A stretch of 54,670 bases of DNA, counting the filler, from Jimgerdemannia flammicorona (lineage: Eukaryota): assembly GCA_003990765.1 (NCBI GenBank). It is 3 parts of 3 records of this genome, joined end to end, with 100 filler letters (N's around TTAATTAATTAA, not from the genome) between each part and the next. Parts side by side here need not be neighbours in the genome. Positions count along the whole stretch, not along the records: positions 36,516 to 54,670 come from RBNJ01002283.1; 2 more parts are not named here. One strand, written 5' to 3'. Below are positions 8,388-54,670 of this stretch, piece by piece. The translations under genes and the position numbers were made by a program. The first letter of the stretch is position 1, and each line of letters opens with the position of its first letter. The notes beneath the pieces are model-generated. The model worked only from the letters and a program-made list of their open reading frames with translations, did no database searches and was not told the origin of the DNA.

Positions 8388-10312
8388 TGTAAGAGGGTTG
8401 CTTTTTTAGAGTAACCATTACGTAGTTCTGAAAAGATTTTCTGGATATTCTGGATGTTCTGGAAGACTGTTTTCTTATGTTCAAGATCAATTTCGTATGG
8501 AGTACATCCTCTATGCTTATTGATTTCAAGATTGGGTTGACATCTCAACCAAAGTCCTTTTTTGGACTAGTTTTGGATGTTCAGGATTTTCCATATTTCA
8601 GGAAGTTCAAGAAACTAAGACCAGCTTAGTTGAATTGGCATATTGCTGCAGACAATACCCAATTAGGAAATTTCGCAATGGGGTTAGGAGTGGGACCTAA
8701 CAGGGAGTGGATTTACTTAAGAGTGGTTTGTGGGTTATTTGAATAGATTTATTTTCTATTCATGATATTGCTATACTAGGAGTAGTTGTATAGAGGGATA
8801 TTGTGGGGAAGTATTCAGGAATGTTCTTGTGTATTCGAGTCTGAGATTCTGAGGTCTGGGGGAGGGGGTATTTATACTAGTGAGGGGCTATCTGGACTAT
8901 GCTAGATATGGATGTAGCACTAAGTGCTTTGCTGAGTCAGAATGCACTCACATAGTACAAGTGTGATCTGATATATCAAGAGATCATCTGACTGTTGAGT
9001 CAGTTCACAGTTACGTGATACAAGGCTAATCTAACTATACTTATGACTGCTAGGCTATTTGTAGGTTTAGGCACTGTCTGGGTAGTCCTCAATGACATCA
9101 CTATCGATTGCATCATCTCTGATGAAGTAGTCATCTAGGAAGAGTGGTTTGCAGATTACTTCTCCTTGTTCACTGAGGTAATAATACATTGGAACTTTGT
9201 CTTCTGTAGGTTACAGCACTATGAGTCGCAGGGTTATAGTAAGCTAGTGGCTGTGGTTCATGTCGCTCATACTCAGATGGTGGAGTGGTTGGTTCAATCT
9301 CGAGGGTTGTCTGAAGGTGCAGGTTATGTTCTCCGGTCTCTTCATTATAGTTGAACTAATCAGGGGTGAATGCTGGTTGGTATTCATGTGAGTGGTCATT
9401 GTCCCAATAAGTCTCGTATGCAGTTATGAACTGTTGTAAGTTCATTGGCAAGGTTGGTGGAGTGATCAGGGTTGGCAGAGATCCTTGGCTGGAGGTCATA
9501 TCGGCATTGGAGGGATCATTGTCTTCTGCTTCATCTTCATCGAAGTGGATTATATCATAGATGCCCTTCATGGCATATCCAACTTGGGGCATTTGCAGAA
9601 TATGATCATTGGGGTGTGAGAAGGTTCTGTCTGTGGTTTCGATATACTCGAGGTACTTGTGGTTGAGTTCTTGTATTATGTCGTCGATTTGGCCATAGGA
9701 CAGGGTAGCAACCATTTCAGCTGTGGTAACTCAGAGGCAGGGAATAATGGTGCTATGTATACTCATAGAAGAGTTCTCGATATTTGTGGGCAATGAGCTT
9801 CTGGTGTTGAGACATCTGGGTAATGTCTGTATCATGGTGGTGTTCGACCATGTCTTCCAGGAGGCAGCCGATCTGGTAGTAGCTTGAGATTTGTCCAATT
9901 CAGTGGACCTCACTAAGCATGTTCAGAGTGTTCCATTGGGCTTCCACAAAGTAGAGAGGTGCCAGGCTATGGATATTCATGAGGGGCAGAGGGGGTGTGG
10001 CTCGGTTGACAATGGCATTCCAAATGTCAGCGCAGATATGGTTATAGATCTCGGTGGTCATGTTTGTGTGTTTGGAAGTTATAGTTATTGTTTGTTTTGG
10101 TTCTCTGATTTATCTCGGTGCTCAGTATATATGCATTTGTTCCTGATTGGTAAGATTCCATTTGTATAAATCTTGTATTCTGTGACTTCATATTGACTCA
10201 GCTTTGTGTGCTGTGACTTCAGTTTGACTCAGCTTCGTGATCAAGCAGGTGATTTCCAGATTTGTTCAGAGGTCATATATGATTTCAGTGGCTTGGAGGT
10301 TGTGCGCTTACA
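8388..10312 (-). repeat. 3' LTR of copy B (~1.9 kb)
   Basis: Starts TGTAAGAGGG at 8388 and ends GCTTACA at 10312, adjacent to the PPT. Homologous to 16622-17872 and 52508-54563. Confidence 0.92.
9067..10061 (-). pseudogene. LTR U3-encoded ORF, copy B 3' LTR (degenerate, with internal deletion near 9200)
   Basis: ATG at 10061 (MTTEIYNHICADIWNAIVNR). Includes ORF 9356..9715. Ends DYPDSA* at 9067. Homologous to 53184-54281. Confidence 0.75.
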
Positions 10313-10327
10313 ACTCTCCCCTTCTTT
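10313..10327 (-). other. Polypurine tract of copy B
   Basis: Minus strand AAAGAAGGGGAGAGT immediately precedes the TG of the 3' LTR. Confidence 0.88.
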
Positions 10328-10539
10328 GCTTTTGACATTCTTATTGGGTCCTTCTAATTTTGTTCAGTGGTACAGAGAGAATAGGCTTGCTTTCAGTTTT
10401 GCCATTTTTCCAGGGGGTCAGTATTCTTGTCTTGTTTTACTGAGTTCTTGGTTTGGTTTGCAGTAATTATAATGTTCGGGAGGATAATATATAGTATGTA
10501 TAGATAGGTGTGGAGTATTTGGTTCTAGTTGTTCAAGGA

Positions 10540-11900
10540 ATCATATTTCTGAACTAGGTCAGTAGCATTCTGGAGATTTGTCTTGGGTTCCCAGGTTGCA
10601 TCATGGATCGGGTAACCTTTCCATTTGACAAGGTACTCAGGGTGGCTCTTGTTGCCACATTTGTTGAGGATTTGTTCAACTTTGTACTTCTCTTGATCAT
10701 TAATAATAACAGATGCAGGTGGTTTGGTGGTCCTGTTTGGAAATAGTTCATCATCATTCTCATTATATCACTTGAGATGTTGAACATTAAAGACTGGGTG
10801 AATCTTAATGGTGTCTGGTAGTACCAGTTTGTAGGAGGTTAGAGAGACTTGTGCAATGACTTCAAATGGTCCAATGAACTTGCTGTTCAGCTTTGTAGAT
10901 GGTCTGTGCTTGAGGTTGTCAACTTGGTATCCTCTGATGTCCAGTAGAACCTTTTCTCCAATATCAAAGGTTTCTTCTCGGCAGTGTTGGTTAACATACT
11001 GTGACTGTTGTTCTTAAGCTTGTGATAAATTCTTGATTGTGATCTGGCTTAGATTGTGCATTCAGAGTAGGAATTCTTCAACAGCTTTGACTGTGGAGGG
11101 TTCTTCAGTGGTTTGGATAAGTGTCAAAGGGGTGTTTGGGTTTTGTCCAGTATTGGCAAAGAATGGGGTCATTCCAAGAGAGGCTTGCTTGCTATTGTTG
11201 TAAGCAAACTTAACTGTGGTGAGGTGTTCATGCCAATCATCTTGTCTATAGGAAACATAGTTCCTTAGTATTTGTTCCAGAGTTCAGTTCATTCTTTCAG
11301 TTTGACCATCAGTTTCAGGGTGAAAGGCTGTGGATAGTGCAAGTTTTGTTCCAAGGTGTGCATGGAGGGCATTCCAAAAATAGCTGGTAAATTTCAGGTC
11401 TCAGTTGCTAACAATGATCTTAGGAAGACCATGATAGTGGAAGATGCTGTCAAATAAGAGGGTGGCTATGTCTGGTGCTGTTGCAGTAGTGGTAGTAGGC
11501 ACAAAGTGGGCTTGTTTGCTGAGATAGTCCACAAAGACAACAATTGTATCTTTTCCATTCTTGGTTCAGGGTAGTTGTACAATAAAGTCCATAGAGATTT
11601 GTTTCCAATTCATGGATGGTACTGGGATAGGGTGGAGTAAGCTGGGTTTTGCTAGTGTTGAGGACTTGTTGTGTTGGCAGGCATCACAGGAAGTGATATA
11701 GGTCTTGAGCTGATCTGCCATGTAGGGCCAATAGGAGTTTCGGGAGATAACTTCGTAACATTTATCAAATTCTAAATGTCCAGCTGTAGGGGCATCATGA
11801 CATTCGAATAGGATAGTCCTTTGGAGGTCTCGGTTGTTTGGGATATACAATCTGTCTTTGTAGTAGATAGCATTGTCCTTCAGTTGGTATTGGTGATACT
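10540..11900 (-). pseudogene. Integrase + chromodomain (copy B)
   Basis: HHCC region (ECHDAPTAGH..CDACQ), [32 protein letters not shown]. Chromodomain YKVEQILNK...YLVKWKGYPIHDATWEP at ~10570-10700. Confidence 0.93.
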
Positions 11901-12029
11901 TGTATGCTTGTCGGCATCATCACTGTTCAGGATTTCTCACAGTGCTTGAGCTTCCTTATCATTGGCACATGCTGTGATAATTTATTCTATGATGGAGTTT
12001 GTAACCAAGGTGAGATTTTGGATAACCTC

Positions 12030-13330
12030 TTCGATTAGTAGTCTGGAGATTGCATCAGCAACAATATTTTTCTTGCCAGGGTGGTACTAGATTTCGTAGT
12101 CAAAGTTGGTGAGGACTTTTATCCATCTGGCTTGTTTTTGAGAAAGGGTAGCCTGTGTCTTGATGTTGACTAATGACTTGTGGTCAGTCAATACAGTGAA
12201 GTGTACTCCTTCTAAGTATGGTTGCCATTTGATCAGAGTGTCTACGATGGCTAGCATTTCCTTCTCATGAGTTGTGTAGTTGATTTTGGCATCATTGAAC
12301 TTGTGGGAGTGATAGGCCACAGGGTGTCCTTCTTGCATGAGCACTGCTCCAAGAGCTAGGTCAGAGGCATCAGTAGTGACTTCATATGGTAGGTACGCAG
12401 GATTTGCTGGTTGAAGTACTGGAGTGGTTATCAAGGCATCCTTCAGTGCTTGAAAGGTGGTATCTTGCTCAGGTCCACAATTTACAAGATTGTTGAAATC
12501 TTTCTCTTGTTTCATGGTCCAGGGTTGTTCTTGTTTCTTGCTGTACTTGGTCATTTGGGTGAGGGCAGTAGCAATTTTAGCAAAGTTGGCAACAAATCCC
12601 CTGTAATAGTTTGCTAATCCCAGGAATGACTGGAGGTCTTTCAGCTTCTTGAGTCTGGGCCAATCTTTGATTGCAGAGATTTTGCTGGGGTCCACTTTGA
12701 TTCCATTTGGAGTGACAATGTGTTAAAGGAATTGAATTTCTTTCAGGAGAAATTTGCACTTGCTGAGTTTTGCAAAGAGTTGGTTTTCTCAGAGTTTCAG
12801 TAGTACTAATTCAAGGTGTTCAAGATGTTCCTCCAGAGTTTTGCTGAAGACTAGGATGTCATCAATATAGACAACAACGAATTTGTCCAGGTATGGATGC
12901 AGAATGGTATTTATCAGTGTCTGAAAGGTTGCTGGGGCATTAGTTAAGCCAAAGGGCATAACCAGGAACTCAAAGTGTCCATAGCGAGTTTGGAAGGCTG
13001 TCTTGTAGATGTCTTCTCCTTTCATAGCAATTTGCCAGTAACCATTTTGTAGGTCAAAAGAGCTCATGAATTGTGAGTTGGTAAGTCTATCAAATATTTC
13101 ATCAATCCTCAGTAGTGGGCAACAGTTCTTGATGGTCTGTTCATTGAGATCACGATAGTCAATGCACATTCGCAGGTCTCCTCCTTTTTTGACAACAAAG
13201 AGGACTGGTGCACCATAGGGTAATACGCTGGGTCTGATGAATCCTTGTTCTAGGAGTTCATCAATTTCTTTCTTGAGTGTATTGATTTCTCTCAGAGACA
13301 TGTGGTAGATTGACTTGAAGACTGGTTTGG
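12030..13330 (-). pseudogene. Reverse transcriptase + RNase H (copy B)
   Basis: ORFs 12789..13301 ([17 protein letters not shown]) and 12087..12695 (VTTDASDLALGAVL, EKEMLAIV, TDHKSL). Confidence 0.96.
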
Positions 13331-13639
13331 TATCTGGGATAGTCTTGATTGCATGGTCTACTGCTCGTTTGGGAGGTAGGTCTTTTGGGAGCTTCTTTGG
13401 GAATATGTCTCGGAATTTCTGAAGTAGTGGTCAGATGTAGCTGTCAACTTTGGAAAAATCTTCTTCAGAGTTCTCGGGTTCTCCTTTGGATGGACGGATG
13501 GAGATGGTGAAGGGAGGGCATTTCTTGGCCAATTTCTTGAGTTGTAGCTTGTTGATGTGGGGGATCTTTGGTCCGGGGTCACTAGAATTAAGTGGGTCCT
13601 TTCTGCCTTGCAGTTTGAAGTTGTGGCATCCTTTTTTGA

Positions 13640-13970
13640 TGGTCAGAGAATGGTTTACCCAATTGATCATAGGGTTCTCTTATTTCAACCATGGGGTTCC
13701 AAGGATGATTTCATTGTCAGGGAGTGGTACAATCTGGAGGGTAATATGTACTCAGTAGTTGCCAATTCGGAAAGGTAGATTGCAGACTTCTTTGCTAATA
13801 ACATATGAGGTTCTATTAGCTGTAGCAACTGCTTGAGTTTGCTGTACTGAGAAGGTGAAGACCTTGAGTCTGTTGGCTGTCTCATCATTGATGAAGTTGC
13901 TTGAGGTACCACTGTCTATCATGATCTTGACAGGTGCTCGATTGACAAAAGCCTTAAGTGTAAGCAGTTT
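13640..13970 (-). pseudogene. Aspartic protease (copy B)
   Basis: IMIDSGTSSNFI active site and downstream IILGTPWL. Confidence 0.92.
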
Positions 13971-14189
13971 GTCTGATCCAATGTTGGTGATTTCAGTTGT
14001 TTGAGCTTTCCTTCTGTTAGTTCTTTTTTGAGCCAGTTCATTGACACAAGAGAAGCAATCATCAATCATTCAGGAAGAGTACATTCCAATGCTGTAAGGG
14101 CATCGGTCACTTGGTACATATCCATCTTCGATCTTCTTGTAGAATTGTTCCTCTTTGCTCATGGTAGGTTGGGCTGGGGCCTTGTTTGA

Positions 14190-14600
14190 TGAGCCAAATC
14201 CTTTGGATCCTCGGATAGTGGGCAGTAGTTCAGGGACTTCCTTGACTGTCAGGGTTGACTCGATTTTTTCGAATAGGATCTGGGCAATGCAGAAACCAAT
14301 AGAGATCTTGAAGGGTGTCCAACTGTGGTTTCGAATGAGGACAATGATTTCGCCTGTATAATCCTCATCAATGACTCCTCCTTCTACTGAGAGTCCTTTC
14401 AGTGCTAGGCTGCTGCGTCAGCATATTCTTCCAATATGTCCTTCAGGGATTTGGATACTGATTCCTGTGTAGACCTGTTTGACTTCTCAGTTGGAAACTG
14501 TAGCTTTTTTGGCTGCATACAGGTCATATCTAGCTGCTTTTTGACTTCCTTTAGTTGGGGCCTTAGCAGTTTGCCTTAACTTAACAAAGTCTAGTGTTCT
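14190..14600 (-). pseudogene. dUTPase between Gag and protease (copy B)
   Basis: KAPTKGSQKAARYDLYAA...GHIGRIC*RSSLALKG..VEGGVIDEDYTGEI..IAQILF...RGSKGFGSS. All five dUTPase motifs are present. Confidence 0.93.
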
Positions 14601-14609
14601 GGTGGTCAG

Positions 14610-16582
14610 GTTGTTGAGGTGGTGCAGAGTGGTAACAGTTGCTCATGTTGCTGTTCAGGGTTTTCAGTTGGGGCAGGCACTGGCCATGTGTCCTGTCTTT
14701 CGACAATAGAAGCATGCTCCACTTCTTCGAAGTTTGTTCCTTTCACCTTCAGTAAGTTTCTTGAAGGTACTTGGCTGGGTGGGTTCATGATTTCTGGGTG
14801 TCCAAGAGGTGGATGTGGAGGGAGCTCGAGATGCTTCATGCTTGGGTTCTTCTTTCTTGGTCCACATCCTTTCCTTGTTGTTAAATTGTCTTTTGGGCAG
14901 AATTGGTCCAGCTGTTAGAATTCGCTTGACCATGGTCTTGATTCTTACTAGGCACCATTGTTGGTGATCACAACCAACTGGGCGGCCTTGTTCTCGGATT
15001 TTTCTGGTAAGCCATTCAGGCAGGGCATCGAATAAATGGTCTGCTCTTGTACCATTTTGTGCTTCATTGTTGGCAATATATCTTAGGCCAACAGTGTTCA
15101 GGAGTGACTCAAGTTTTGTACAGAAGGTTTCAAATTCTTCTTTGCCATGTACATCAAATTTGAGGTTGTGGAGTTTTACTCAAGATTCGGCTATCATAGT
15201 TTCGCTGCGGTATTGAGCAATCATGAGTTGTTTGAGTCCAGGGGCTGCAGGATGGGCTCCATATCCTGGGGCATTGTTTGCTGCATTCTGAGCAACTACT
15301 GCAGGTTGGGTATCCCATGTGAGGGGTTTTTCAGGAAGGGTTCACCACCATTCTTCAGCAGGTCCTCGGAAGAATGTAACAACTCGGTGGACATAGGCTG
15401 TAGTGGTAGCAAAGAGTTGTTCCAGAGTGTGGTCTTGATTGTTTGTCAGAACGTGGTCAGTAACTCGCTCATTGGTCCATTGATTGGCTTCGAAGTTGGT
15501 GTCCACTATACTAATGAAGCTTTGGACTTCTTGTACAGTACCATTGAAGGTAGGTAGGCTCAGATTTTTGGTAGGTCGGGTCTGTTCAGCTAAGGTAGTA
15601 ATGGTTGCTGCCATTATAGCTACTTGGGCTGTGAGGTCTAGAATCTGTTGGTTTGCCATGTTGGCTGCTGGAGGCGGTTGGACTACTGGTAGTGGTGTTA
15701 CTGGTACTACTTGAGGTACTGGTGCAGAGTGTGATGGAGTTCTTTGGGTCTGTGTAAGTTGCTGGAGTAGTAGTTGTGGATCTGGAGTGAGGACTTGATA
15801 GATAGCTGTTTGTTGCTGTGTAGGTGTATTCTGTCCTGATGGATGTGTGTCTCCTTCGGTGGTGTATCCGGGATCGAATTCGGTGAGATACTCCTCCTCT
15901 TCTTCGGTTTGGTCCCCATGTAATTGGGTTTGCTTGGCATCAAAGTAGACAGAATCAGTTGTATATCTGATTTCAGATGGACTTAATTCAAAGTCAAGTT
16001 CAGGTTTGGTATTGGTTTCAGATTCAGGTAGGGTTGTAGCAGGGCCTGCTTCAGGTTCGGGGTCAGGTAGTTGATGAAGGGCTTCTCTTGCTTCTTCCTT
16101 AAGGATATGGCAGGCCTTGCTGTTCTGGAATCGGTAGTATAAGGTGGTCTTGGTCCTGGTGCGGTGAAAGTCGGTAGAGTTGAGCCACTTAGCTACAGAG
16201 GCTTGGGCTTCGTGAGGAACTAAGGCTAAAAAGACTGCTGCTGGTTATCCTAGGTCGCTCAGATTTGTGAAGCTGACAAAACTCTTGTTGAGAAGAGTAA
16301 AGAAGGCTTCGATAAGACCTTCTTCATTGTGACTTGCTGGGTGTAGTGCAAGGAGTTCGGTGAATAGGGTTTTGCCTATTTGCTGGTTTAACTTGAGTAC
16401 TTCTTTCTTAGAATGAAGTTTGTCCCACTTGTTGCAGGTATGGAGGTCAAATTGTCCTTGTACGTCAGGTTCAATTCTCTTCAGATTGTCGGATGGTTCA
16501 GGATAAATTCCAGTTCAGAGGTTGGGCTTTATACCAACTTGTAGGAATTTGCAGAAGGGTTTGTAGTGGGGTGAGGAAGCAT
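14610..16582 (-). pseudogene. Gag with long N-terminal extension and CCHC knuckle (copy B)
   Basis: LPTFNG..FRGPAEEWW capsid-like region (15342..15659) and CFYCRKTGHMASAC knuckle. The upstream reading frame extends ~300 codons toward the PBS once stops and an indel are corrected between copies. Confidence 0.8.
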
Positions 16583-16606
16583 CTTGAAGCGGAATTGGAT
16601 TGTAAA

Positions 16607-16618
16607 CCGCTGCTACCA
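16607..16618 (-). other. Primer-binding site, initiator tRNA-Met type
   Basis: TGGTAGCAGCGG lies 3 nt inside the 5' LTR end (…CTTACA ACT TGGTAGCAGCGG). TGGTAGC is the complement of eukaryotic tRNA-iMet 3' ends. Confidence 0.8.
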
Positions 16619-16621
16619 AGT

Positions 16622-17872
16622 TGTAAGAGGGTTACTTTTTTGGGTGACTGTTACGTAGTTCTGGAAAGGTTTTCTGGATATTCTGGATGTTCTGGAAGAC
16701 CGTTTTCTTATGGTCAAGATCAATTTCGTATGGAGTATGTCCTCTACACTTATTGATTTCAAGATCGGGTTGACGTCTCAATCAAAGTCCTTTTCTGGAC
16801 TAGTTCTGGATGTTCAGGATTTTTCGTATTTCAGGAAGTTCAAGAAACTAAGACCAGCTTAGTTGAATTGGCATATCGCTGCAGACAATACCCAATTAGG
16901 AAATTTCGTGATGGGGTTAGGAGTAGGACCTAACAGGGAGCTGATTTACTTAAGAGTGGGTTGTGGGTTATTAAATAGGTTTATTCGCTATTCATGATAT
17001 TGCTATACTAGGAGTATTTGTGTGAAGGGATATTGTGGGGAAGTGCTCAGGAGTTGTGTTTGGATTGTTCAAGTCTTTCAAGTCTGAGATTCTGAGGTCT
17101 GGGGGAGGGAGTATTTATACTAGTGAGGGGCTATCTGGACTATGCTAGATATGGGTGTAGCACTAAGTGCCTTGCTGAGTCGGAATGCAGTCACATAGTA
17201 CAAGTGTGATCTGACATGTCAAGAGATCGTCTGACTGCTGAGTCAGTTCACAGTCACGTCGTATAAGGCTAATCTATCTATACTATGACTGCTAGACTAT
17301 TTATAGGTTTAGGCACTGTCTGGGTAGTCTTCGATGACATCACCATCAATTGCATCATCTCTAATGAAGTAGTCGTCTAGGAAGAGTGGTTTGCAGATTA
17401 CTTCTCCTTGTTGGCTGAGGTAGTAATATATTGGAACTTTATCTCCATCCCACAGGATAGCATCGTCTGTTTTGTATGCCAGATAAGGTGTTGGTGGGCG
17501 AAGGATGGGTGTATTGTCTTTGCTTTCATCGGATTCGCTGTCTGCATACCTTCTATAGATTACAGCACTATGAGTTGCAGGATTGTAGTAAGCTGGCAGT
17601 TGTGATTCATGTCGCTCGTATTCAGGTGGTGGGGTGGTTGATTCAATCTCGAGGGTTGTCTGGAGGTACAGATTGTGTTCTCCAGTCTCTTCATTGTAAT
17701 TGAAGTAATTGGGAGCGAATGCAGGTTAGTATTCGTGCCAGTGGTCATTGTCCCAATAAGTCTTGTAGGCGGTTATGAACTGTTGTAAGTTCATCGGCAA
17801 GGTTGGTGGCGTGATCAGGGTTGGCAGAGATCCTTGGCTTGAGGTCATGTCAGCATCAGAGGGATCATTGTC
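16622..17872 (-). repeat. 5' LTR of copy B (truncated by LINE insertion at 17873)
   Basis: Begins TGTAAGAGGG at 16622. Homology to the other LTRs stops abruptly at 17872. Confidence 0.9.
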
Positions 17873-28319: not shown

Positions 28320-28489
28320 GGTTCGACGGAAGTGTGTGTTGAATGGGAGTGGTGGCGTCGTGGACGAGCAAGTCGAGGATGACGCGACTTAACCCTATTT
28401 GGCCAGGGCGTAAAGTTCTCCACAAAACATGTGTATACACAATTACGGTTGGCCGTTGCGGCAATTTGCCAAAGGCTAGTAGGAGGCCA

Positions 28490-32772: not shown

Positions 32773-32803
32773 AGGAGAGGTTTAATCTTTAACAATATTC
32801 CTC

Positions 32804-35800: not shown

Positions 35801-36415
35801 GGGATTGGGCAAGGATCTGGTCTTGGAGTATGGAGGTCCGGCGGTGGCTCCCTCCCAAGTTCTGGGTAGTGTAGTGGCATATATTGCAGAGGAATGTTAT
35901 GTTGAACTTCCGTGCTGGACATCTAGTGGATGGGGGTCAGCTGGATTGTGAGGAGTGTTTTAATGTTGGGCAAGTTGGGGATTTTGTGCAAATACCAGAA
36001 CATTGGCTGGGGGAGTGTGAGGTTCTGGGTGACTTTTGGATAGCTGTAGGGGACTGCCTTGGGGTTGAAAGGAGACCAGATGGGGAGAGAGGTCGCTGGA
36101 AAGATCTGGAATCTAGACTTGTGGGAGGTGTTGGTAATGGGTGGCTTACTGTAGGATGGGTTGTGGCAGTGTGGGTGGGGTTGGCTGGACATTGGCTCTT
36201 TGTTTTTGAGGAGGGGCGACAGATAGGGATACAGGAGAAGTTATTGAGATGGGAGGAGTTGGTGGCAGATTTGTTGACAGGGTGGTGGGTTGGGTGGGGA
36301 CTGCAAGGTGGGCGACATCGCTGTCTGGTGGAAGGGATCTGTGAGCAGAGTGGTGGGCGGGTGGCGATGGTGTTTGATAAAGTGGTTTTTCGTCAAGAAG
36401 GGGTAGAGGGGGGGG
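32804..36415 (+). pseudogene. LINE ORF2: APE endonuclease + RT + C-terminal CxxC..H..C
   Basis: MNSTTNIFSLNVNGLRG, LLQD, GGDFN, RIDWI, SDH. PGEDG, NWRPI, LDQEKAYDHV, QGDPLSP, FADD. CEEC...EHWLGEC. Confidence 0.95.
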
Positions 36416-36515
36416 NNNNNNNNNNNNNNNNNNNNNNNNNNNNNNNNNNNNNNNNNNNNTTAATTAATTAANNNNNNNNNNNNNNNNNNNNNNNNNNNNN
36501 NNNNNNNNNNNNNNN
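36416..36515. other. Artificial contig spacer
   Basis: 44 N + TTAATTAATTAA + 44 N. Confidence 0.97.
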
Positions 36516-36766
36516 ACAGGTTGGTGGGTGGGTTGGGGACCTCAGGGGGGACGACATCGAAGTTTGGTGATGAAGATCTGTAAGCAGAGTGGTGGGAGGG
36601 TGGGGATAGTGTTTGTCAAAGTGGTCTTTCACAGAGAAGGGGTAGGGGGGGGGAGGGCCCCCTAGGGGGATTGGATAGGGGTGGTTTCATTGTAATTATA
36701 TAAGATAGATGAGTATTAATAAAGGAAGGGAGTCCAAGTGACTATAAAAAAAAAAAAAAAAAAAAA
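36516..36766 (+). mobile_element. 3' end of another LINE copy with AATAAA and poly(A) 36746-36766
   Basis: Homologous to 4385-4638. Overlaps but differs from 36277-36415, so it is a separate copy. Confidence 0.9.
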
Positions 36767-37730: not shown

Positions 37731-37796
37731 AAAAAAAAAAAAAAGAAAAAAAAAGAAAAAATAAAAAAAAAAAAAAAAAAAAAAAAAAAAGAAAAA

Positions 37797-38468
37797 GAGT
37801 AGATGTATGAAGGAATATTGTGGGGAAGTGCTCAGAAGTTGTGTTTGGATTGTTCAAGTATTCAAGTCTGAGATTCTGAGGTCTGGGAGAGGGAGTATAT
37901 ATACTAGTGAGGGGTTATCTAAGCTATACTAGATATGGATGTAATACTTAGTGCCTTGCTGAGTTAGAATACAGTCACATAGTATAAGTGTAATCTGATA
38001 TAACAAAAGATCATCTGACTGCTGAGTTAGTTCACAGTTATATCATATAAGGCTAATCTAACTATACTATGACTGCTAAGCTATTTATAGATTTAGAGGC
38101 TGTCTGGTTAGTCTTTAATGACATCACTATTGATGATATCATTCCTGGCAAAGTCGGAGTAGTTATCTAACTTTTGACATTATGAGTTTCTAGGTATCAT
38201 CACTTCTATCTCTTGTAAGATTAAGGTTGTCCTTAGTTGCAGTGGTTGTACAAGGATAACAGGTCTTGGTTCTCTTTTTTTTTTAGTCTGCTGGTACATT
38301 TGTGAGGACTAGTCATCCTTGTCTAGGGCAAGAGCTCCTAATGTCATGGCTGGGGGTTTGAACCTCTCAGAAATAATATATATTTTCTATAATCTGAGGC
38401 AATTTCTAGTAATAATATCTATCATGTAGATGGCTTGTGATTGGTTTCAATGATATTGGCTTTCTTTA
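37797..38468 (-). repeat. Variant 3' LTR of chromovirus copy C, part 1 (R/TATA region and U3, left of LINE copy 3)
   Basis: 37797-38135 aligns with 17010-17360 and 52895-53240. From 38140 onward the sequence diverges from the other LTRs. Confidence 0.8.
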
Positions 38469-41400: not shown

Positions 41401-44118
41401 CATGGATTAAATTGGAGATAATGGAACTGCAACAGGTATTGAGAGAAGAGGAGGAGGTGGATATGTGAGATATGGCTGCTAGGCTAAGGTGGTAGGGGCC
41501 TGAGGAGGGTGAGTGGCCTACTAGATATTTATCCTGTCTGCTCAAAGCTAGGAGAGTGAGACATCAGTGGGATGGAGTCCTGGATACCAATAGGGACATG
41601 GTACATGGCATGCAACAAATCTTAGGAGTTTTGAAAGAGAGATGGCCGGGTTTGTGGAGTGAGGAAGAAGGGGGTGCTGATGAGATGGCTATCGAAGATA
41701 CATTAGAGGAATGGAGGCTGCTGCAAGTGGCTGGACTGGATGGCTTGGCCTTGCCGGTACAAGGTGAGGATGTCCAGATTGTCCTTGTGGTAACTAAAAC
41801 TAGAACTGCACTAGGGGAGGATGGACTACCATGGGACTTCTGGAAGAAGAAAGTCAAGGTCCCTGGCATTTTAGGTGAGATGACTGCTCTCTGTGATCAT
41901 GTTCTTCAGAGTGGTGAGTGGGTTGGAGAGCAGGATCTCGGGCTGGTGGCTTTACTGTACAAAGACAAGGAGAGGAGAGAAGACTGGAAGAACTGGCAAC
42001 TGATCATACTTTTGGACATGGACAGGAAGATGGTGACTAAGGTGGTTGTTGCAAGGCTGCAGAAGGTTGCCCAACAGGTACTAGGGGAGGAGCAGCAGGG
42101 CTTTATTGGAGGCAGACATATAAGAGATGAGATTGCATGGGTATATGGTGTCATTGAAGGGGCCTGGGCTTGTGGCCTAGATGGTAGGTTGGTCTTCTTG
42201 GACCAGGTGAAGGCCTATGACTGGGTCCAGCAGGTTTGGCTGGGCAAGGTGTTGGATCATATTGTTGTTCCTTCAGGATTTTGAACTTCTATGTTGAACC
42301 TGCTAGAGAGCAGTTGGGTGGTGCTGATGTGTAATGGTTACTGTGGTCTGGCATTTATCTTAAGAAGAGAGGTTTCTCAGGGAGACCCCCTGTCCCCTAT
42401 TCTTTATGCTCTCTCATTGGAACCATTAATGGATAGGATTTGCCAGAAGGTGGTAGTGCTCTCTATCTATGGTATAGTGTGGAAGATGGGAGCTGTTGCA
42501 GATGATATAGTGGTTGGCCTTGGGTCTGTGGCGGATATTGAGGTACTTAAGGAGATGGTGGAATGGTATGAGGATCACTCTGGGGCAAAGCTCAACTGGC
42601 ATAAGTGTGAGACTATTGTGCTTGGGAATGGGCTGATGGGTGGGGATGTCATTTGAACAATTGTCTCTACTGGTGAGGTGGTACAGTATCTGGGTATATT
42701 CCTCTCTGTATATGGCTCTGTCTTGCTACGAGTGTGGTGAGAGAGCAGGGTGGCTGTTTGTGGGGAGGCCCTTTGAGGTTGGGGAGGCTGCCATATCTCT
42801 CTAGCAGGGCAGGTATCAATTCTGAATACATACTGGTTCCCCAAGCTATGGTATGTGGTCTACCACCTAGACTTCCCAGCTTGGGTGATGAAGAGACTGA
42901 CAAAGGTGGCTAGGGATTGTATTTGGGCAGAGAGGAGGTCCCAGATCAGTTGGGATACTCTTGCAACACTGGTGGTCAGAGGAGGTCTTGGCCTTGTAGA
43001 TTTCCCTAAGAGGTTGCACTGCTTGCGAGTCTGGTGGTTGAAGAGAGTGGCTGAACTGCAAGGAGGGGGTTGGGTGCCTCTGCTGCAGAAGGTGTGAGAG
43101 ATGAGAACCTCCCCCCGAGGGTCCTCAGGAGATCTACTCTCTTTGGTAGAGCTCAATGGCATTCAGAGGCTGCAGTTTAAGGGCTTTTGGTGGGGAGTGA
43201 TCAATAGAGTGCACAGAATTGGTCTGTGCTGGTAAGGCAATGAGGAGGAGGTGTTGTTGGGACCTAGTATGTGGCAATGAGATAGACTACTACTGGGGGG
43301 TACTCCACTTGCTTCCTTTAATATTGGGGACAGAGTGGAGTATCAGCAGGGTCTTGGCCAGGATCTTTGGCCAAGCAGTTGGCAGACAGTCGGGATTAGC
43401 AAGGAGTGGGACTGGGCAGGTATCTGGTCTTGGAGTGCTGAGGTATGGTGGTGGCTTCCCCCCAAGTTCTGGGTGGTGTGGTGGTGAATGTTGAGGAGTA
43501 ATATCATGCTGAATTTCTATACTGGGCATCTGGTGGATGGTGGCTGTTTCAATTGTGAGGAGTGTTATAATGTAGGGTAAGCTGGGGGTTTGGTGCAGAT
43601 GCCAGAACATTGGCTGGGAGAGTGTGAGGTTTTGGGGGACTTTTGGGTTGAAATAGGGAATAGACTGGGTGTAGAGTGCAGGCTGGCAGGTGAGGGGGAT
43701 CGCTGGGAGGACTTGAGATCTTGGCTAGTGGGGAGGGTGGGTGATAGTTGGCTCACTGTCAGGTGGGTGTTAGAAGTTTGGGTGGGATTAGCAGGACATT
43801 GGCTATTTGTGTTTGAGGAGGGGCAGTAGATGAGACTGCAGGAGAAGATTTTAAGATAGGAGGAGCTATTGGGGGATCTGATGACTGGATGGTGGATAGG
43901 TTGGGGTTCTTCAGGTGGGCAATGGTGAGGTTTGGTGGCAAGGATATGTGAACAGAGTGGTGGGAGAGTGGGGATTGTATTTGATAGAGTGGTATTTCGT
44001 CAAGAAGGAGTAGGAGGGAGGGGCCCTCCTTGGGGTATTAGATAGGTGGTGGGTTCACTGTACTTATATGAGATAGATGGGTGTAATAAAGAAAGAGTCC
44101 AAGTGACTTAAAAAAAAA
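38469..44118 (+). mobile_element. L1/Tx1-like LINE, copy 3 (full-length span, degenerate) with ~17-bp TSD
   Basis: 5' UTR, ORF1, ORF2, AATAAA and poly(A) 44110-44118. Flanks are GATATTGGCTTTCTTTA (38452-38468) and GCTATTGGTTTTCTTAA (44119-44135). Confidence 0.93.
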
Positions 44119-47500: not shown

Positions 47501-49991
47501 TCATGGCAATTTGCCAGTAATCATTTCACAGGTCAAAAGAGCTCATAAATTGTAGATTGGTGAGTCTATTGAATATTTTGTTGATTCTGGATAGTGGGCA
47601 ACAGTTCTTGATGGTCTGTTCATTGAGGTTACAGTAATCAATACATATTTGCAGGTCTCCTCCTTTCTTTACAATGAAGAGGACTGGTGCACCATAGAGT
47701 GATACACTTGGTCTGATAAATCCTAGTTCTATGAGTTTGTCAATTTCTTTCTTAAGTACATCAATTTCTCTCAGAGACATATGGTAGATTGACTTGAAGG
47801 CTGGCTTGGTATCTGAAATAGTCTTGATGGCATAGTCTACTGCTTGTTTAGGTGGTAGGCCTTTTGGAAGCTTCTTCAGGAATATGTCTCAGAATTTCTG
47901 GAGTAAGGGTCTAACATGGCTGTCGACTTTGGAAAAGTCTTCTTCAGAATTCTCAGGTTCTCCTTTAGATGAGTGGATGGAGATAGCGAAGAGAGGGCAT
48001 TTCTTGGCCAATTTCTTGAGCTGTAGTTTGTTGATATTTGTGATCTTTGGTCCAGGGTCACTAGGGCTGAGTGGGTCCTTTTTGCCTTACAGTTTGAAGT
48101 TGTGGCATCCTTTCTTGATGATTAGAGAATGGTTTACCCAATCGATTATGGGGTTCTCTTGTTTTAACCATAGAGTCTCAAGAATGAATTCATTATCATG
48201 GAGTGGTATGATCTGGAAGGTAATATGTACTTGGTAGTCACTAATTCAGAAGGGCAGATTGTGGACTTCCTTACTAATAACATGTGAGGTTCCATCAGCT
48301 GTGGCAACTGCTTGAGTTTGTTGTACCAAAGAGGTGAAGATCTTGAGTCTGTTGGCTGTTTCTTCATTAATGAAGTTGCCTGAGGTACCACTGTTTATCA
48401 TAATCTTAACAGGTGCTCAATTGACAAAAGTTTGAAGTGTAAGCAGTTTGTCTGATACAATGGTAGTGATTTTGGTTGTAGAAGCTTTTCTTCTATTGGT
48501 TCTTCTTTGAGCCAGTTTGTTGATACAAGAGAAGCAATTATCAATTATTTGAGAAGAGTACATCTCAATGCTATGGGGACATCAGCCACTTGGTACATAT
48601 CCATCTTTGATCTTCTTATAGAATTGTTCTTCTTTATTCATAGTAGGTTGAGCTGGGGCCTTGTTTGATGAGCGAAATCCTTTGGACCCTCAGATGGTGA
48701 GCAGTAGTTCAGGAACTTCCTTGACTGTCATGGTTGACTGGATTTTTTCAAATAGGATCTGAGTAATACAGAAACTAATGGAGATCTTGAAGGGTGTCCT
48801 ACTGTAGTTTCGGATAAGAACAATAATTTTGTCTGTGTAATCTTCATCAATGACTCCTCCTTCTACTGAGAGTCCTTTTAATACTAGGCTGCTGTGACAG
48901 CATATTCTTCCAATATGTCCTTCAGGGATTTAGATACTGATTCCTATATAGACTTGCTTGACTTCTCAGTCAGAAACTGTAGCTTCTTTGGCTGTATACA
49001 GATCATATCCAGCTGCCTTTTGACTTCCTTTAGTTGGGGCCTTAGCAGTTTGTCTTAACTTGACAAAGTCCAGTGTTCTGGTGGTCAGGTTATTGAGGTA
49101 GTGCAGAGTAGTAACAGTTGCTCATGTTGCTGTTCAGGGTTTTCAGTTGGGGCAGGCACTGGTCATGTGTCCTGACTTTCAGCAATAGAAGTATGCTCCA
49201 CTTCTTCAAAGTTCATTTTTTCTCCTTCAGTGAGTTTCTTAAAGGTGCTCGGCTAGGTGGGTTCATGATTTCTGAATGTCCAAGAGGTGGATGTGGAGGG
49301 AGCTTGGGATGCTTCATGCTTGGGTTCTTCTTTCTTAGTCCAAGTTTTTTCCTTATTGTTAAATTGTCTTTAGGGCAGAATTGGTCCAGCTGTTAGGATT
49401 CACTTGACCATAGTCTTGATTCTTGCCAGGCACTATTGTTGGTGATCACAACCAACTGAGTAGCCTTGTTCTCAAATTTTTCTAGTAAGCCATTCAGGTA
49501 GGGCATTGAATCAATAGTCTGCTCTTATATCATTTTGTGCTTCATCATTAGCAATATATCCTAGGCCAACAGTATTCAGAAGTGACTTGCTGTATATATC
49601 AAATTTGAGGTTGCAGAGCTTTACTCAAGATTTGGCAATCATGGTTTTACTGCAGTATTGAGCAATCATGAGTTGTATCAGTCCAGGAGCTACAGGATGG
49701 GCTTCATATCCTGGGGCATTATTTGCTGTATTCTGAGCAACTACTGCAGGTTGGGTGTCCCATGTGAGGGGTTTTTCAGGAAGAGTTCACCACCATTCTT
49801 CGGCAGGTCCTCAGAAGAATGTAACAACTCAGTGGACATAGGCCATAGTAGTAGCAAAGAGTTGTTCCAGAGTGTGGTCTTGATTATTTATCAGAAGGCA
49901 ATCAGCAACTCACTCATTTGTCCATCGATTGGCTTCAAAGTTGATTTCAACTATACTAATGAAGCTTTGGACTTCTTGTGCAGTACCATTG
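44580..49991 (-). mobile_element. Chromovirus copy C internal region (PPT, chromodomain, integrase, RNase H, RT, PR, dUTPase, partial gag)
   Basis: Colinear with 10313-15545. More stops than copy B. Gag is cut at 49991 by a copia LTR. Confidence 0.94.
48665..49075 (-). pseudogene. dUTPase (copy C)
   Basis: KAAGYDLYTA...CHSSLVLKGLSVEGGVIDEDYTD...GSKGFRSS. Confidence 0.9.
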
Positions 49992-50747
49992 TATTGTGAA
50001 CTCAGGAGGAATAGGAAGGATGAGAGAAGAAGAATGTTTATTGATCACCTAATGTTACATGCTTTTATGTGATTATTGATGATGTCACCCCAATGCCACT
50101 GCGCCACAAATTATCTATATTGAGTGCTATATCAAGTTGGAATCTGTAATCTCAACACTCCCGCTCAACGAGATAAAGATTGCAAATGCAAATAAAACTG
50201 ATCAATCTCCAGCTAAGTTAAGCAGAAAACAAAACATTGCCAAAGGGATACTATCTAGATGACCAAAAAAGGTTGAAATTCCCTACTTATAAGCATAAAA
50301 ATACATAAGAGAAGTAGTGAAAAAATGGAAATCCTGAGCAATGTTATAGGTTTCCATTACAAATATTTGCTGTAACACTCATTCTACCCATCGTTTCACT
50401 GTAATATTTATTTTTACCCATTGTTCACCATTATTTGCTCGTCGCTCGTCATTATACCCATTCCTTGCACACAAAAATCAAACTTTGCCTTTGGAAGGGC
50501 CTTCATTAGTGAATCTGCTGCCATTTGCTCCGTAGGGGTGTATAACAGGCATATAGCCTTGTTATCAATGCATTCTCATATGTAATGGTGCTGTATATCG
50601 ATATGCTTGGTCTTTGCATGATATATAGAATTTTTTACCAAAGCAATGGTGGATTGGTTATCCTGTCATATAGTCATAGATTCTTGAGGGAATCCCAGAT
50701 TCTTTAGCAGTTCACGAAGCCAGATGGTCTCCTTCATCGCCTCCAAG
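49992..50747 (-). mobile_element. Ty1/copia 3' fragment: RNase H (50450-50747), PPT (50158-50168), ~166-bp LTR (49992-50157)
   Basis: KETIWLRELL...QDNQSTIALVKN..YHAKTKHIDIQHHYI...TEQMAADSLMKALP is typical copia RNase H. Minus strand TTGAGCGGGAG|TGTTGAG. Confidence 0.9.
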
Positions 50748-52865
50748 TCTTTTCCTTGTTGTTAAATTATCTTCATGGCAGAATTGGTCCTGCTGTTAGG
50801 ATTCGCTTGACCATAGTCTTGATTCTTGCCAGGCACCATTGTTGGCGGTCACAACCAACTGGGCAGCCTTGTTCTCAGATTTTTCTAGTGAGCCATTCAG
50901 GCAGGGCATTGAATAAATAGTCTGCTCTTGTACCATTTCATGCTTCATTGTTGGCAATGTATCCTAGGCCAACAGTGTTCAGGAGTGACTCGAGCTTTGT
51001 ACAGAAGGTTTCAAATTCTTCTTTGCCATTTACATCGAATTTGAGGTTGTGGAGTTTTACTCAAGATTTGGCAATTATGGTTTCGCTGTAGTATTGAGCA
51101 ATCATGAGTTGTTTGAGTCCAGGGGCTGCAGGATGGGCTCTATATTCTGGGGCATTGTTTGCTGTATTCTGGGCAACTACTGCAGGTCAGATATCCCATG
51201 TGAGGGGTTTTTCAGGAAGAGTTCACCACCATTCTTTGGCAGGTCCTTGGAAGAATGTAACAACTCGGCAGACATAGGCTGTAGTTGTAGCAAAGAGTTG
51301 TTCCAGAGTGTGGTCTTGATTATTTGTCAGAATGCAGTCAGCAACTCGCTCATTGGTCCATTGATTGGCTTCAAAGTTAGTGTCAACTACACTAATGAAG
51401 CTTTGAACTTCTTGTGCAGTACCATTGAAGGTAGGTAGGCTCAGATTTTTGGTAGGTTGGGTCTGTTCAGCTAAGGCAGTAATGGTTGCTGCCATTATGG
51501 CTACCTGGGCTGTGAGGTCTAGAATCTGTTGGTTCACCATGTTGTTTACTAGAGGCGGTTGGACTGCTGGTAGTAGTGTTACTGGTACTACTTAAGGTAC
51601 TGGTGCAGAGTGTGATGGGGTTCTTTGGGTCTGTGTAAGTTGCTGGAGTAGTAGTTGTGAGTCTGGAGTGAGGGCTTGATAGATAACTGTTTGTTGTTGA
51701 GTAGGTGTATTCTGTCCTGATGGAGGTACTTCTCCTTCGGTGGTATATCCGAGATCGAATTCAGTGAGATACTCCTCCTCCTCTTAAGTTTGGTCCCTGT
51801 GTAATTGGGTTTGCTCGGCGTCAAAGTAGATGGAATCAGTTGTATATCTGATTTCAGATGGACTTAATTCAAAGTCAAGTTCAGGTTCAGTATTGGTTTC
51901 AGATTCAGATTCAGCTGTAGCAGGGCCTGCTTCAGGTTCAGGGTCAGGTAATTGATGAAGGGTTTCTCTTGCTTCTTCTTTAAGGATATGTATGGTGGGC
52001 CTTGCTGTTCTGGAATCAGTAGTATAAGGCGGTCTTGGTCCTGGTGCGGTGAAAGTCAGTAGAGTTGAGCCACTTGGCTACAGAGGCTTGGGCTTCATGA
52101 GGAACTAAGGCTACAAAGACTGCTGCTGGTTGTCCTAGGTCGCTTGGATTTGTGGAGCTGACAAAACTCTTATTGAGAAGAGTAAAGAAGGCTTCAATAA
52201 GACCTTCTTCATCTTGACTTACTGGGTGTAGTGCAAGGAGTTCAGTGAATAGAGTTTCACCTATTTGCTGGTTTAACCGGAGTACTTCTTTCTTAGAATG
52301 AAGTTTGTCCCACTTGTTGCAGGTATAGAGGTCAAATTGTCCTTGTATGTCAGGTTCAATTCTCTCCAGATTGTTAGATGGTTCAGGATAAATTCCAGTT
52401 CAGAGGTTGGGCTTTATACCAACTTGTAGGAATTTCTCAGAAGGGTTTGTAGCAGGGTGAGGAAGCGTCTTGAAGCAGAATTGGATTGTAAACCGCTGCT
52501 ACCAAGTTGTAAGAGGGTTGCTTTTTTAGAGTAACCATTATGTAGTTCTGGAAAGGTTTTCTGGATATTCTGGATGTTCTGGAAGACCATTTTCTTATGG
52601 TCAAGATCAATTTTGTATGGAGTACGTCCTCTATGCTTATTGATTTCAAGATCATGTTGATGTCTCAACCAAAGTCCTTTTTGGACTAGTTCTGGATGTT
52701 CAGGATTTTCCACATTTCAGGAAGTTCAAGAAACTAAGACAAGCTTAGTTGAATTGGTATATCGCTGCAGACAATACCCAATTAGGAAATTTAGTGATGG
52801 GGTTAGAAGTAGGACCTAACAAGGAGTGGATTTACTTAAGAGTGGTTTGTGGGTTATTGAATAGG

Positions 52866-52994
52866 TTTATTTGCTATTCATGATATTGCTATACTAGGAG
52901 TAGTTGTGTGAAGGGATATTGTGGAGAAGTATTCAGGAATGTTCTTGTGTGTTCGAGTCTGAGATTCTGAGGTCTGGGAGAGGGGGTATTTATA
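52866..52994 (-). promoter_or_regulatory. LTR TATA box (TATAAA, 52994-52989) and poly(A) signal (AATAAA, 52871-52866)
   Basis: Both are conserved at the equivalent positions of the LTRs at ~8870/8750 and ~17115/16982, and their order fits U3-R-U5. Confidence 0.7.
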
Positions 52995-53183
52995 CTAGTG
53001 AGGGGCTATCTGAACTATGCTAGATATGGATGTAGCACTAAGTGCCTTGCTGAGTCAGAATGCAGTCATATAGTATAAGTGTGATCTGACATGTCAAGAG
53101 ATCATCTGACTGCTGAGTCAGTTCACAGTCACGTTGTACAAGGCTAATCTAACTATATTATGACTGCTAGGCTATTTATGGGT

Positions 53184-54281
53184 TTAGGCGCTGTCTGGGT
53201 AGTCCTCGATGACATCACCATCAATTGCATCATCTCTGATGAAGTAGTCATCTAGGAATAATGGTTCGCGGATTACTTCTCCTTGTTTGCTGAGGTAATA
53301 ATACATTGGAACTTCGTCTTCATCCCACAGAGTAGCATCGTCTGTCTTGTACACTGGATAATGTGTTGGTGGGTGAAGGATGGGTATATTGTCTTCACTT
53401 TCATTGGATTCGCTGTCTGCGTACCTTCTATAGGTTACGGCACTGTGAGTTGCAGGGTTATAGTATGCTGGCAGCTGTGGTTCATGTTGCTCATACTCAG
53501 GTGGTAAAGTGGTTGGTTCAATCTTGAGAGTTGTCTGGAGGTACAGGTTGTGTTCTCTGGTCTCTTTGTTGTAGTTGAAGTAATCGGGGGTAAATGTGGG
53601 TTGGTATTCGTACCAGTGGTCATTGTCCCAATAAGTCTCGTATGCAGTTATGAACTGTTGTAAGTTCATCAGCAAGGTTGGCGGAGTGATCAGGGTTGGC
53701 AGAGATCCTTGGCTAGAGGTCATGTCAGCATCAGAGGGATTATTGTCTTCTGCTTTATCTTCATCGAAGTGGATTATATCGTAGATGTCCTTCATGGCAT
53801 ATCCAACTTGGGGCATTTGCAGGATATGATCATTGGGATGTGAGAAGGTTCTGTCTGTGGTTTCAACATACTCAAGATACTTGTGGTTGAGTTCTTGTAT
53901 CATATCATCGATTTGGCCATAGGACAGGATAGCGACCATTTCGCTGGTAGTAACTCAGAGGTGGGGAATAAAGATGCTGTACTTGTAGAAGAGTTCTCAA
54001 TGTTTGGGGGCAATGAGCTTCTAGTGTTGAGACATCTGGGTAATGTCTGTATCATGGTAGTGTTCGATTATGTCTTCCAGGAGGTGGCTGATCTGGTAGT
54101 AGCTTGAGATTTGTCCAATTCGGTGGGCCTCGCTAAGTATGTTCAGAGCATTCCATCGGGCTTCCACAAAGTAGAGGGGTGCCAGGCTATGGATATTCAT
54201 GAGGGGCAGAGGGGGTGTGGCTCAGTTGACAATGGCATTCCAAATGTCAGCGCAGATACGGTTGTAGATCTTGGTGGTCAT
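53184..54281 (-). pseudogene. LTR U3-encoded ORF of unknown function (~365 aa reconstructed; open part 53184..53939)
   Basis: In-frame ATG at 54281. The four intervening stops are TGA/TAG, and three are CGA/CAG sense codons in the copy at 9067-10061. Confidence 0.78.
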
Positions 54282-54670
54282 ATTTGTGTATTTGGAAGTT
54301 TTTGTTTGTTTTGGTTCTCTGTTTCAATGCATCTCGGTGCTCAGTATGTATACATTTGGTCCTGATTGGTAAGATTCCGTTTGTGTAAATCTTGTGTTCT
54401 GTGACTTTGTATTGACTCAGCTTTGTCCACTGTGACTTCGGTTTGACTCAGCTTCGTGATCAAGCAGGTGATTTCCAGATTTGTTCAGAGCTCACGTGTG
54501 ATTTCAGTGGCTTGTTCAGAGGGTGATGTGTAATTTCGGTGGCTTGGAGGTTGTGTACTTACACTTCCTATATTCTAATAACTTACTATATTTTAACTTT
54601 TGGTTTTCTGCTTTCTTAATGACCAACTATATTCTGATGACCTATTAGCCCACCCATATCCTGATGAACT

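Follow-up and report, generated by a model that had tools for sequence, protein, structure and literature searches.

A probable protein-coding gene inside the long terminal repeat of a fungal chromovirus

Can a fungal retrotransposon's long terminal repeat (LTR) hold a gene of its own? The question is raised by a 54,670-nucleotide stretch of the Jimgerdemannia flammicorona genome (GenBank assembly GCA_003990765.1; three parts joined by filler, the last from RBNJ01002283.1; hereafter the window), in which a long reading frame lies inside an LTR of a Ty3/gypsy element. Fungal LTR retrotransposons are usually held to encode gag and pol only, with LTRs as non-coding control regions, and an LTR is not where a retrotransposon would usually keep a gene. 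An earlier note on this DNA had proposed that a gene for a protein of ~365 amino acids, read on the minus strand from ATG 54281 to TAA 53184, sits in the U3 (unique 3') region of the LTR. We find that purifying selection acted on the last 251 codons of this frame (ORF-C, for open reading frame; ATG at 53939) as strongly as on the element's reverse transcriptase (RT), and that these codons probably represent a real protein-coding gene of a dUTPase-bearing chromovirus, wholly inside its LTR. A sense-strand gene in the LTR, upstream of the TATA box, is thus upheld, but the coding evidence covers codons 115–365 only; the 108 codons that open the longer frame (ORF-N) are treated separately below.

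Purifying selection on a frame inside the LTR

The minus strand of the window carries two decayed copies of one Ty3/gypsy element, here called element L (left) and element R (right). Pfam domains on this strand follow the order gag-asp_proteas, RVT_1, RT_RNaseH, Integrase_H2C2, SH3_Tf2-1 and Chromo (E 2.4e-17), with a dUTPase domain (14070–14417, minus strand; E 7e-19) between gag-CCHC and protease. This order identifies the element as a dUTPase-bearing chromovirus, a type known from Basidiomycota according to the available part of one survey (PMC2864245). The direct repeats, TGTAAG...CTTACA, survive as copy A (5' LTR of R), copy B (3' LTR of L) and copy C (truncated 5' LTR of L), which are 88–93% identical, and as a fourth, decayed remnant. 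The LTR ends, the primer-binding site (PBS) and, in copy B, the polypurine tract (PPT) described in the earlier note are all present (54563->52508 in copy A). Copy A, and likewise copy C (junction 16621), is followed by ACT and TGGTAGCAGCGG and then by gag; on the 5' side of copy B stand a chromodomain ORF and then the purine tract AAAGCAAAGAAGGGGAGAG, and purine tracts precede both 10312 and 44579. The likeness of A and B stops exactly at the LTR end CTTACA, where an unrelated flank adjoins copy B. Given these junctions, with PBS and gag for A and C and with chromodomain and PPT for B, the frame-bearing stretch is part of the LTR, 5' and 3' alike. Its presence in both kinds of LTR agrees with the earlier proposal that every insertion carries the frame, and every full LTR would therefore carry ORF-C.

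Thousands of short contigs were mapped to this region; they came from three soil metagenome runs and one organism run, all public. In each of the four runs the whole LTR, ORF included, was covered in 29 of 30 bins, the flank bin being empty, and contigs that run out past 54563 enter a PPT. The ORF-bearing LTR is therefore the normal form of a high-copy family, one that appears abundant in soil metagenomes. There are 22 indels relative to these contigs, and the 12 listed all lie outside 52950–54296.

The frame from 54281 to 53184 translates as described, with in-frame stops at codons 20, 87, 95 and 109. The statement that all four derive from C>T changes holds for three of them, which read CGA, CAG and CGA in copy B, but is not shown for the fourth, a TGA (53957–53955) that A and B have in common. 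At 54023 all covering metagenome contigs read a sense-strand C (CAG), and at 53999 most do (CGA); no majority contig difference appears at 54224 or 53957 among the differences listed (438 further ones exist), a weak hint that the stops at these two positions may be common in the family. Behind the shared TGA, copy A stays open for 256 codons. When the LTR was shuffled with its composition preserved, one shuffle in 5000 reached at least 251 open codons (median 93, maximum 252). Across ORF-C, copies A and B have no common stop in the coding frame versus 8 and 10 in the two alternative frames, and the antisense strand has no ORF of more than 87 codons. The recurrence of the C-terminal part in a third LTR was also confirmed: copy C retains 187 codons (17872->17312) with one stop. 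The ORF-C remnant of copy B (9715->9070) is interrupted by one stop (TAC>TAG) and by a deletion of 107 bp, and the fourth LTR remnant keeps the last ~24 ORF-C codons together with a motif pair and the TATA region, both described below.

The LTR copies were compared site by site. Across ORF-C, the differences at first, second and third codon positions number 18, 8 and 38 between A and B, 20, 11 and 36 between A and C, and 11, 4 and 38 between B and C. The ratio of non-synonymous to synonymous substitution rates (dN/dS), calculated by the Nei-Gojobori method (NG86), is 0.15, 0.19 and 0.08 for the same pairs. By the same method, nine segments of gag-pol compared between L and R range from 0.15 (RT, dUTPase) to 0.40 (gag), and a phase scan of pol gives a similar codon periodicity. 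The ratio thus stays far from ~1, the value at which the earlier note would have given up the gene, in the C-terminal 251 codons, but it is 0.8 in ORF-N.

Transitions, often at CpG, make up most of the differences between copies. We therefore took the non-coding LTR of each pair as calibration for a neutral model with four site classes, in which transitions and transversions were kept separate. Its expectation for ORF-C is 43, 45 and 36.5 non-synonymous differences (A–B, A–C and B–C); 28, 31 and 17 were seen, and the fraction of 3000 neutral simulations attaining the observed count was at most 0.0003 in each of six runs. A sliding A–B scan detects a third-position excess only from ~53960 to 53190, which matches the borders of ORF-C. 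The CpGs of ORF-C mostly span codon boundaries, and in the three pairs they changed at 12/19, 8/18 and 8/12 on the synonymous C side versus 4/19, 7/17 and 2/11 on the replacement G side. Divergence at third positions is 18–26% in ORF-C and 24% in RT; the non-coding LTR diverges by 6–10%, so no sites of the LTR change faster than the synonymous ones of ORF-C. During the divergence of these LTR lineages, then, purifying selection acted on ORF-C as strongly as on RT.

The LTRs that flank element L (B and C) differ by 10–12%, with the signature of purifying selection in their differences. Since neither B nor C is closer to the other than to A, and since they bear this signature, they are not sister LTRs of one insertion. 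Element L is probably a recombinant of two lineages and, as far as their sequences tell, copies A, B and C sample separate active lineages, which makes the selection test informative. For use as a neutral LTR pair in insertion dating, B and C were rejected, given their 10–12% distance and the selection signature.

A search of ~15 billion predicted proteins returned one true relative of the ORF-C product, P0001 (247 aa, from a 998-bp metagenome contig; E 1e-98). The two proteins share 159 identities over 250 positions (64%) and 201 positives, with 4 gap positions in two short in-frame gaps. The first Met of P0001 corresponds to Met 53939, the C-termini also match (YPDSI and YPDSA), conservation extends along the full length, and the composition of P0001 resembles that of the ORF-C product. 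When ORF-C was decayed at random to 64% identity, it acquired 3.6–5.3 stops and remained open in 0.3–1.3% of 400 runs per setting, with positives averaging 74–75% versus the 80% seen for P0001. Peptide patterns gave 231 stretches among JGI metagenome contigs and 133 among IMG/VR contigs, with no confirmed relative in either set; an invariant 23-mer of the LTR had no match in either. A search among shorter proteins, confined to the range of 30–74 aa, found no relatives. Two candidates from a representative search (P0002 and P0003) were rejected as repeat proteins that match 38–40 residues at 34–37% identity many times over.

Likely position, expression and product of ORF-C

The features discussed here are collected in the table. 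ORF-C most likely lies in U3, which we place from 54563 to ~52965. Its end is ~190 bp upstream of TATAAATA, the presumed main promoter element, and ~310 bp upstream of the AATAAA, which stands ~120 nt past TATAAATA. In copies A, B and C, TATAAATA is conserved; the fourth remnant reads TATATATA at that place, and the 23 bases just downstream (52975–52953) are identical in all four LTR copies. At 2.06 kb, the LTR is long for the group of dUTPase-bearing chromoviruses.

Features of the LTR copies and elements, with positions in the window
Feature	Position	Strand	Remarks
ORF-C	53184..53939	-	ATG 53939 to TAA 53186–53184; 251 codons; intact in copy A; under purifying selection
ORF-N	53955..54281	-	ATG 54281; 108 codons, then TGA 53957–53955; three stops private to copy A
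TATAAATA	52987..52994	-	presumed main LTR promoter; motif only
AATAAA	52866..52871	-	presumed polyadenylation signal in R (repeat region); conserved in A, B and C; function inferred
Two tandem 31-nt units, each GCTGAGTCA...AGTCAC	54392..54453	-	sense orientation, 110–170 nt before ATG 54281
Two inverted units of the GCTGAGTCA-bearing motif	53048..53153	+	between ORF-C stop and TATA box
LTR copy A, 5' LTR of element R	52508..54563	-	TGTAAG...CTTACA; self-BLAST and MAFFT against B and C
LTR copy B, 3' LTR of element L	8388..10312	-	self-BLAST and MAFFT
LTR copy C, 5' LTR of element L	16622..17872	-	truncated at 17872; self-BLAST and MAFFT
Fourth LTR, 3' LTR of element R	37797..38170	-	decayed remnant, broken by an insertion resembling a long interspersed nuclear element (LINE)
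PBS-like TGGTAGCAGCGG	52493..52504	-	3 bases past the end of LTR copy A
Element L, internal part	10313..16621	-	gag, CCHC, dUTPase, protease, RT, RNase H, integrase (H2C2, SH3), chromodomain, PPT; Pfam

Two pairs of GCTGAGTCA-bearing units stand within the LTR, one in tandem ahead of ORF-N and one inverted, 55–160 nt before the main TATA box. All eight GCTGAGTCA sites of the window fall in LTR copies, versus a chance expectation of 0.52; we take the motif core, TGAGTCA, to be an AP-1/Gcn4 site. Between the tandem pair and ATG 54281 there is a TATA-like TATACATA at ~54350. The ORF is also surrounded by an imperfect inverted repeat (I1; 34 nt, 74% complementary) with arms 1273 nt apart. This layout of motifs suggests two promoters with one common input, the upstream one yielding a short mRNA. 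At AUG 53939, both A and B have an A at -3 and a G at +4, and a YAG directly 5' of it. A scan of the leader for GTRHGT donor sites detected a single one in element R (52222) and, between 17120 and 16000, none in element L.

ORF-C would form the 3'-terminal cistron of the genomic RNA, downstream of pol and the PPT. Its likeliest route of expression would be a separate short mRNA that starts in the 5' part of the LTR and ends at the LTR's own polyadenylation signal; a spliced subgenomic RNA would be a less likely route. Since reverse transcription copies U3 into both LTRs, solo LTRs would keep ORF-C too.

The predicted product has a mass of 29.6 kDa and a pI of 4.2. It is rich in Asp, Glu, Tyr and Pro (49 Asp+Glu versus 13 Lys+Arg; 34 aromatic residues; 21 Pro; no Cys), with a grand average of hydropathy (GRAVY) of -0.81. 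On inspection, no signal peptide, hydrophobic segment or basic region was seen; the absence of a hydrophobic segment and the GRAVY value argue against a membrane glycoprotein. An Rfam search of the LTR matched no family. As a tentative suggestion that we consider somewhat unlikely, the protein might act in the nucleus as an adaptor or co-activator through acidic and aromatic protein contacts. Presumably soluble and very acidic, it could serve as co-activator at the repeated AP-1/Gcn4-like sites of its own LTR; alternatively, it might bind chromatin or silencing proteins. A more far-reaching picture, which we regard as speculative and distinctly doubtful, would make each LTR a self-contained cassette of a stress-type AP-1/Gcn4-like promoter, a 251-codon ORF and a polyadenylation signal, expressed from full elements and many solo LTRs. 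Its acidic accessory protein would feed back on LTR promoters through the common motif or disarm host chromatin silencing.

Weighing other readings of the frame

Several points weigh against reading ORF-C as a gene of U3. Its product matches no Pfam family (E up to 10) and no PDB chain (E up to 1), a search of the ESM Atlas gave no usable hit, and AlphaFold2, run on a 4-row alignment, returned no confident fold (mean predicted local distance difference test score 33.2, predicted template modelling score 0.26). The homologue is a single one in ~15 billion proteins, and the databases contain called open frames only, which introduces an ascertainment bias. The overall divergence of ORF-C (10–12%) is not below that of the non-coding LTR (6–10%); the case therefore rests on the location of the changes, not on their number. 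The three pairwise comparisons are interdependent, and NG86 disregards the strong transition bias. Copy A is itself decayed: its 20 listed ORF-C disagreements with the metagenome contigs fall 6, 6 and 8 on the three codon positions, and 11 of them change a residue. The transcription start, polyadenylation and splice sites are read from motifs, and the U3 placement is hence inferred from these. Finally, an mRNA that starts upstream of 54281 would put the ORF-N AUG and its 108-codon frame ahead of ORF-C, an awkward arrangement for scanning ribosomes.

If ORF-N belonged to the gene, the whole 365-codon frame would be translated, and TGA 53957 would reflect independent decay of a CGA in A and B, or be read through. 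We consider this unlikely, yet it draws on more than one observation. The stops within codons 1–108 are each private to one copy and read CGA or CAG in the other (copy B has one of its own where copy A reads CGA), so that A and B have no common stop in frame versus 3 and 4 in the other frames. ORF-N and ORF-C share one frame in copy A, the 4-bp insertion that shifts ORF-N in copy B being apparently private to it; CpG decay is heavy, with a quarter to a third of the non-coding CpG sites differing in each pair, so that a parallel CGA>TGA change is not implausible; and the AUG of ORF-N is the first after the TATA-like box at ~54350. Against this, the A–B differences in ORF-N are spread 14, 7 and 8 over the codon positions, so that 8 of 29 fall on third positions versus 38 of 64 in ORF-C, and 23 non-synonymous changes were seen versus 20 expected (dN/dS 0.8). 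With so few common stops in the other frames, an open ancestral frame of 108 codons, at a stop density of ~3%, has a chance of ~0.03 and is thus only mildly unusual. The TGA stands in both copies that cover it, a search with a 66-aa stretch found no candidate ORF-N homologue, and P0001 starts at the internal Met even though its 998-bp contig has 254 bases to spare. As this sole homologue begins there, the gene most likely has 251 codons, not ~365. The "helical N-half" of the earlier note is accordingly not retained as part of the protein: it has no codon phase, its dN/dS is 0.8, and a TGA common to both covering copies separates it from ORF-C. ORF-N is probably non-coding U3 or leader sequence, perhaps regulatory. 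A related reading, which we rate as quite improbable, accepts the gene but moves it to the R region or 5' leader, with the main promoter upstream (54392–54453 and TATACATA at ~54350), as an "ORF0" before gag comparable to those of Retrosat2, RIRE3 and RIRE8. Upstream of 54281, both the repeat pair and the TATA-like box are conserved between A and B, a 5' position would simplify translation, and a very long R has a precedent in Retrosat2 (2023 bp in the available part of PMC3485330). However, the canonical TATAAATA lies downstream of the ORF, with its own motif pair before it and the 23-mer identical in four copies after it; an AATAAA ~120 nt past the TATA box is the usual short-R layout; and with an R of 1.5 kb, the 5' LTR would have a working polyadenylation signal at a long distance from the cap.

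The gene, if real, could instead be a stranger to the element: a nested element or captured gene within inverted GCTGAGTCA-bearing repeats, carried as a passenger with no role in retrotransposition. Imperfect inverted repeats (34 nt, 74%; 21 nt, 86%) do flank ORF-N plus ORF-C, at 54452 and 53049–53145, and the protein is unlike anything in gag-pol and belongs to no family. Yet we think a foreign origin of this kind very unlikely. The selection signature between LTR lineages equals that of RT, so the ORF is of present importance to the element, wherever it came from. No target-site duplication was seen by eye outside the arms, so that of the nested transposable element (TE) with its own termini, raised as a danger in the earlier note, only the inverted repeats are found. 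The arms consist of tandem bZIP-type sites before a TATA-like box, and enhancers fit them better than transposon ends. The protein collections searched held no host-gene homologue, and no mapped metagenome contig joins across the ORF. That there is no gene at all, and the frame is a by-product of a sense strand rich in C and A and poor in T and G, is in our view scarcely credible. Shuffled LTRs do yield long open runs, and the product matched no family and gave no confident fold; but the codon-phase pattern is limited to the ORF, P0001 is open at 64% identity, and the length of 251 codons was reached by just the one shuffle. We therefore keep to the reading of ORF-C as a probable gene of the chromovirus.

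Neighbouring features and known systems

Several further features of the copies were observed. About 90% of the differences between LTR copies are transitions, and 10–38% of the non-coding CpG sites differ per pair; where copy A alone departs from the metagenome contigs, sense-strand C>T or G>A changes predominate. This pattern looks like methylation-linked deamination of repeats. The start of copy A has a 32-bp tandem duplication (54481–54546), which is missing in copy B and in some metagenome contigs. In element R the gag/CCHC region contains an internal direct duplication (49339–49991 and 50742–51427, ~1.4 kb apart) that element L lacks, and the identity of L and R falls from ~92% (16621–14700) to ~85% (14400–10300). 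Following the first 50 bases of the 3' LTR of R, 412 bases (44530->44118) match nothing else in the window, LTR and ORF included; the remnant of that LTR has a long T-rich run (37740–37800) in place of the sequence after the R region. With its 5' LTR truncated in element L and its 3' LTR broken in element R, neither element offers a comparable pair of flanks for a target-site duplication.

Elsewhere in the window, a non-LTR retrotransposon that combines an Exo_endo_phos endonuclease and an RT (50–58% G+C, with a very strong GC skew of 0.4–0.5) is present in three plus-strand copies that are 76–84% alike (10–4638, 30897–36766 and 38697–44118). The third of these interrupts the 3' LTR of element R. 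A multi-exon GH18 chitinase gene with two CBM5/12 modules lies at 26132–28545 on the minus strand (54–57% G+C), and its nearest Atlas clusters are fungal. A few kb from it, the interval 21001–22000 has a G+C content of only 13.8%.

If ORF-C is the gene it appears to be, chromoviruses are able to evolve accessory genes of the retroviral style at the unusual site that also houses the sag gene of mouse mammary tumour virus (MMTV). Solo LTRs, commonly dismissed as dead promoters, could stay protein-coding, and TE annotation that masks LTRs will overlook such genes. The product belongs to no known family, so what it does could bring to light a novel way for a retroelement to handle its host. Were the cassette with LTR feedback or anti-silencing to prove true, it would stand as a fungal equivalent of the regulatory genes that complex retroviruses carry.

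MMTV sag is a U3-encoded superantigen gene of a betaretrovirus, and nef of the human and simian immunodeficiency viruses and bel/bet of foamy viruses overlap U3. Like sag, ORF-C would be a sense-strand accessory ORF that follows the PPT and lies within the LTR, upstream of its promoter (here identified by motif); it would be duplicated in both LTRs and located at the 3' end of the genomic RNA. Unlike sag, it is carried by a fungal Ty3/gypsy chromovirus and not by a vertebrate retrovirus, and unlike retroviral accessory proteins its product has no Pfam match (E up to 10) and no PDB match. A second comparison is with foamy-virus Tas, a transactivator with response elements in an internal promoter and in the LTR promoter. 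The layout here is similar, in that a single composite motif precedes both the accessory ORF and the main TATA box, and in composition the acidic, aromatic-rich ORF-C product resembles activation domains. In contrast to Tas, it has no homology and no detected DNA-binding region, and any feedback would be purely hypothetical.

Extra ORFs of other LTR retrotransposons offer the other comparison; the "add. ORF" of fungal chromoviruses, brtn and the ORF3s of bdelloid elements presumably all lie between the LTRs. As far as the available parts of the sources go, they comprise the "add. ORF" (PMC2864245), brtn of Botrytis Boty/BcGypsy1 (10.1101/2021.04.13.439636), the ORF3s (PMC5408684), and ORF0 of Retrosat2, RIRE3 and RIRE8, which lies in the internal region upstream of gag-pol and whose Ka and Ks, in Retrosat2, were compared with those of ORF1 of that element (PMC3485330). 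Judged by these excerpts, ORF-C resembles such frames in being Ty3/gypsy-borne, lineage-specific and a functional orphan, with no homologues outside its family, and, as would be expected of an internal one, it has been kept by selection within an element lineage (dN/dS 0.08–0.19). It differs from ORF0 of Retrosat2, RIRE3 and RIRE8, as described there, in lying inside the LTR, in 5' LTRs (A and C) and in a 3' LTR (B). The carrier element itself is like PosPlaTy3 of Postia placenta and the Phanerochaete elements, with Gag-CCHC, a dUTPase N-terminal in Pol, and the order protease, RT, RNase H, integrase and chromodomain; the available text on these elements mentions no LTR-borne ORF (PMC2864245). 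Searches of full-text literature, with subscription journals and Repbase reports outside their coverage, found no LTR retrotransposon with an LTR-internal gene. By analogy, the layout of ORF-C comes nearest to that of the U3-resident genes of complex retroviruses, and in kind it most resembles the orphan extra ORFs carried by LTR retrotransposons.

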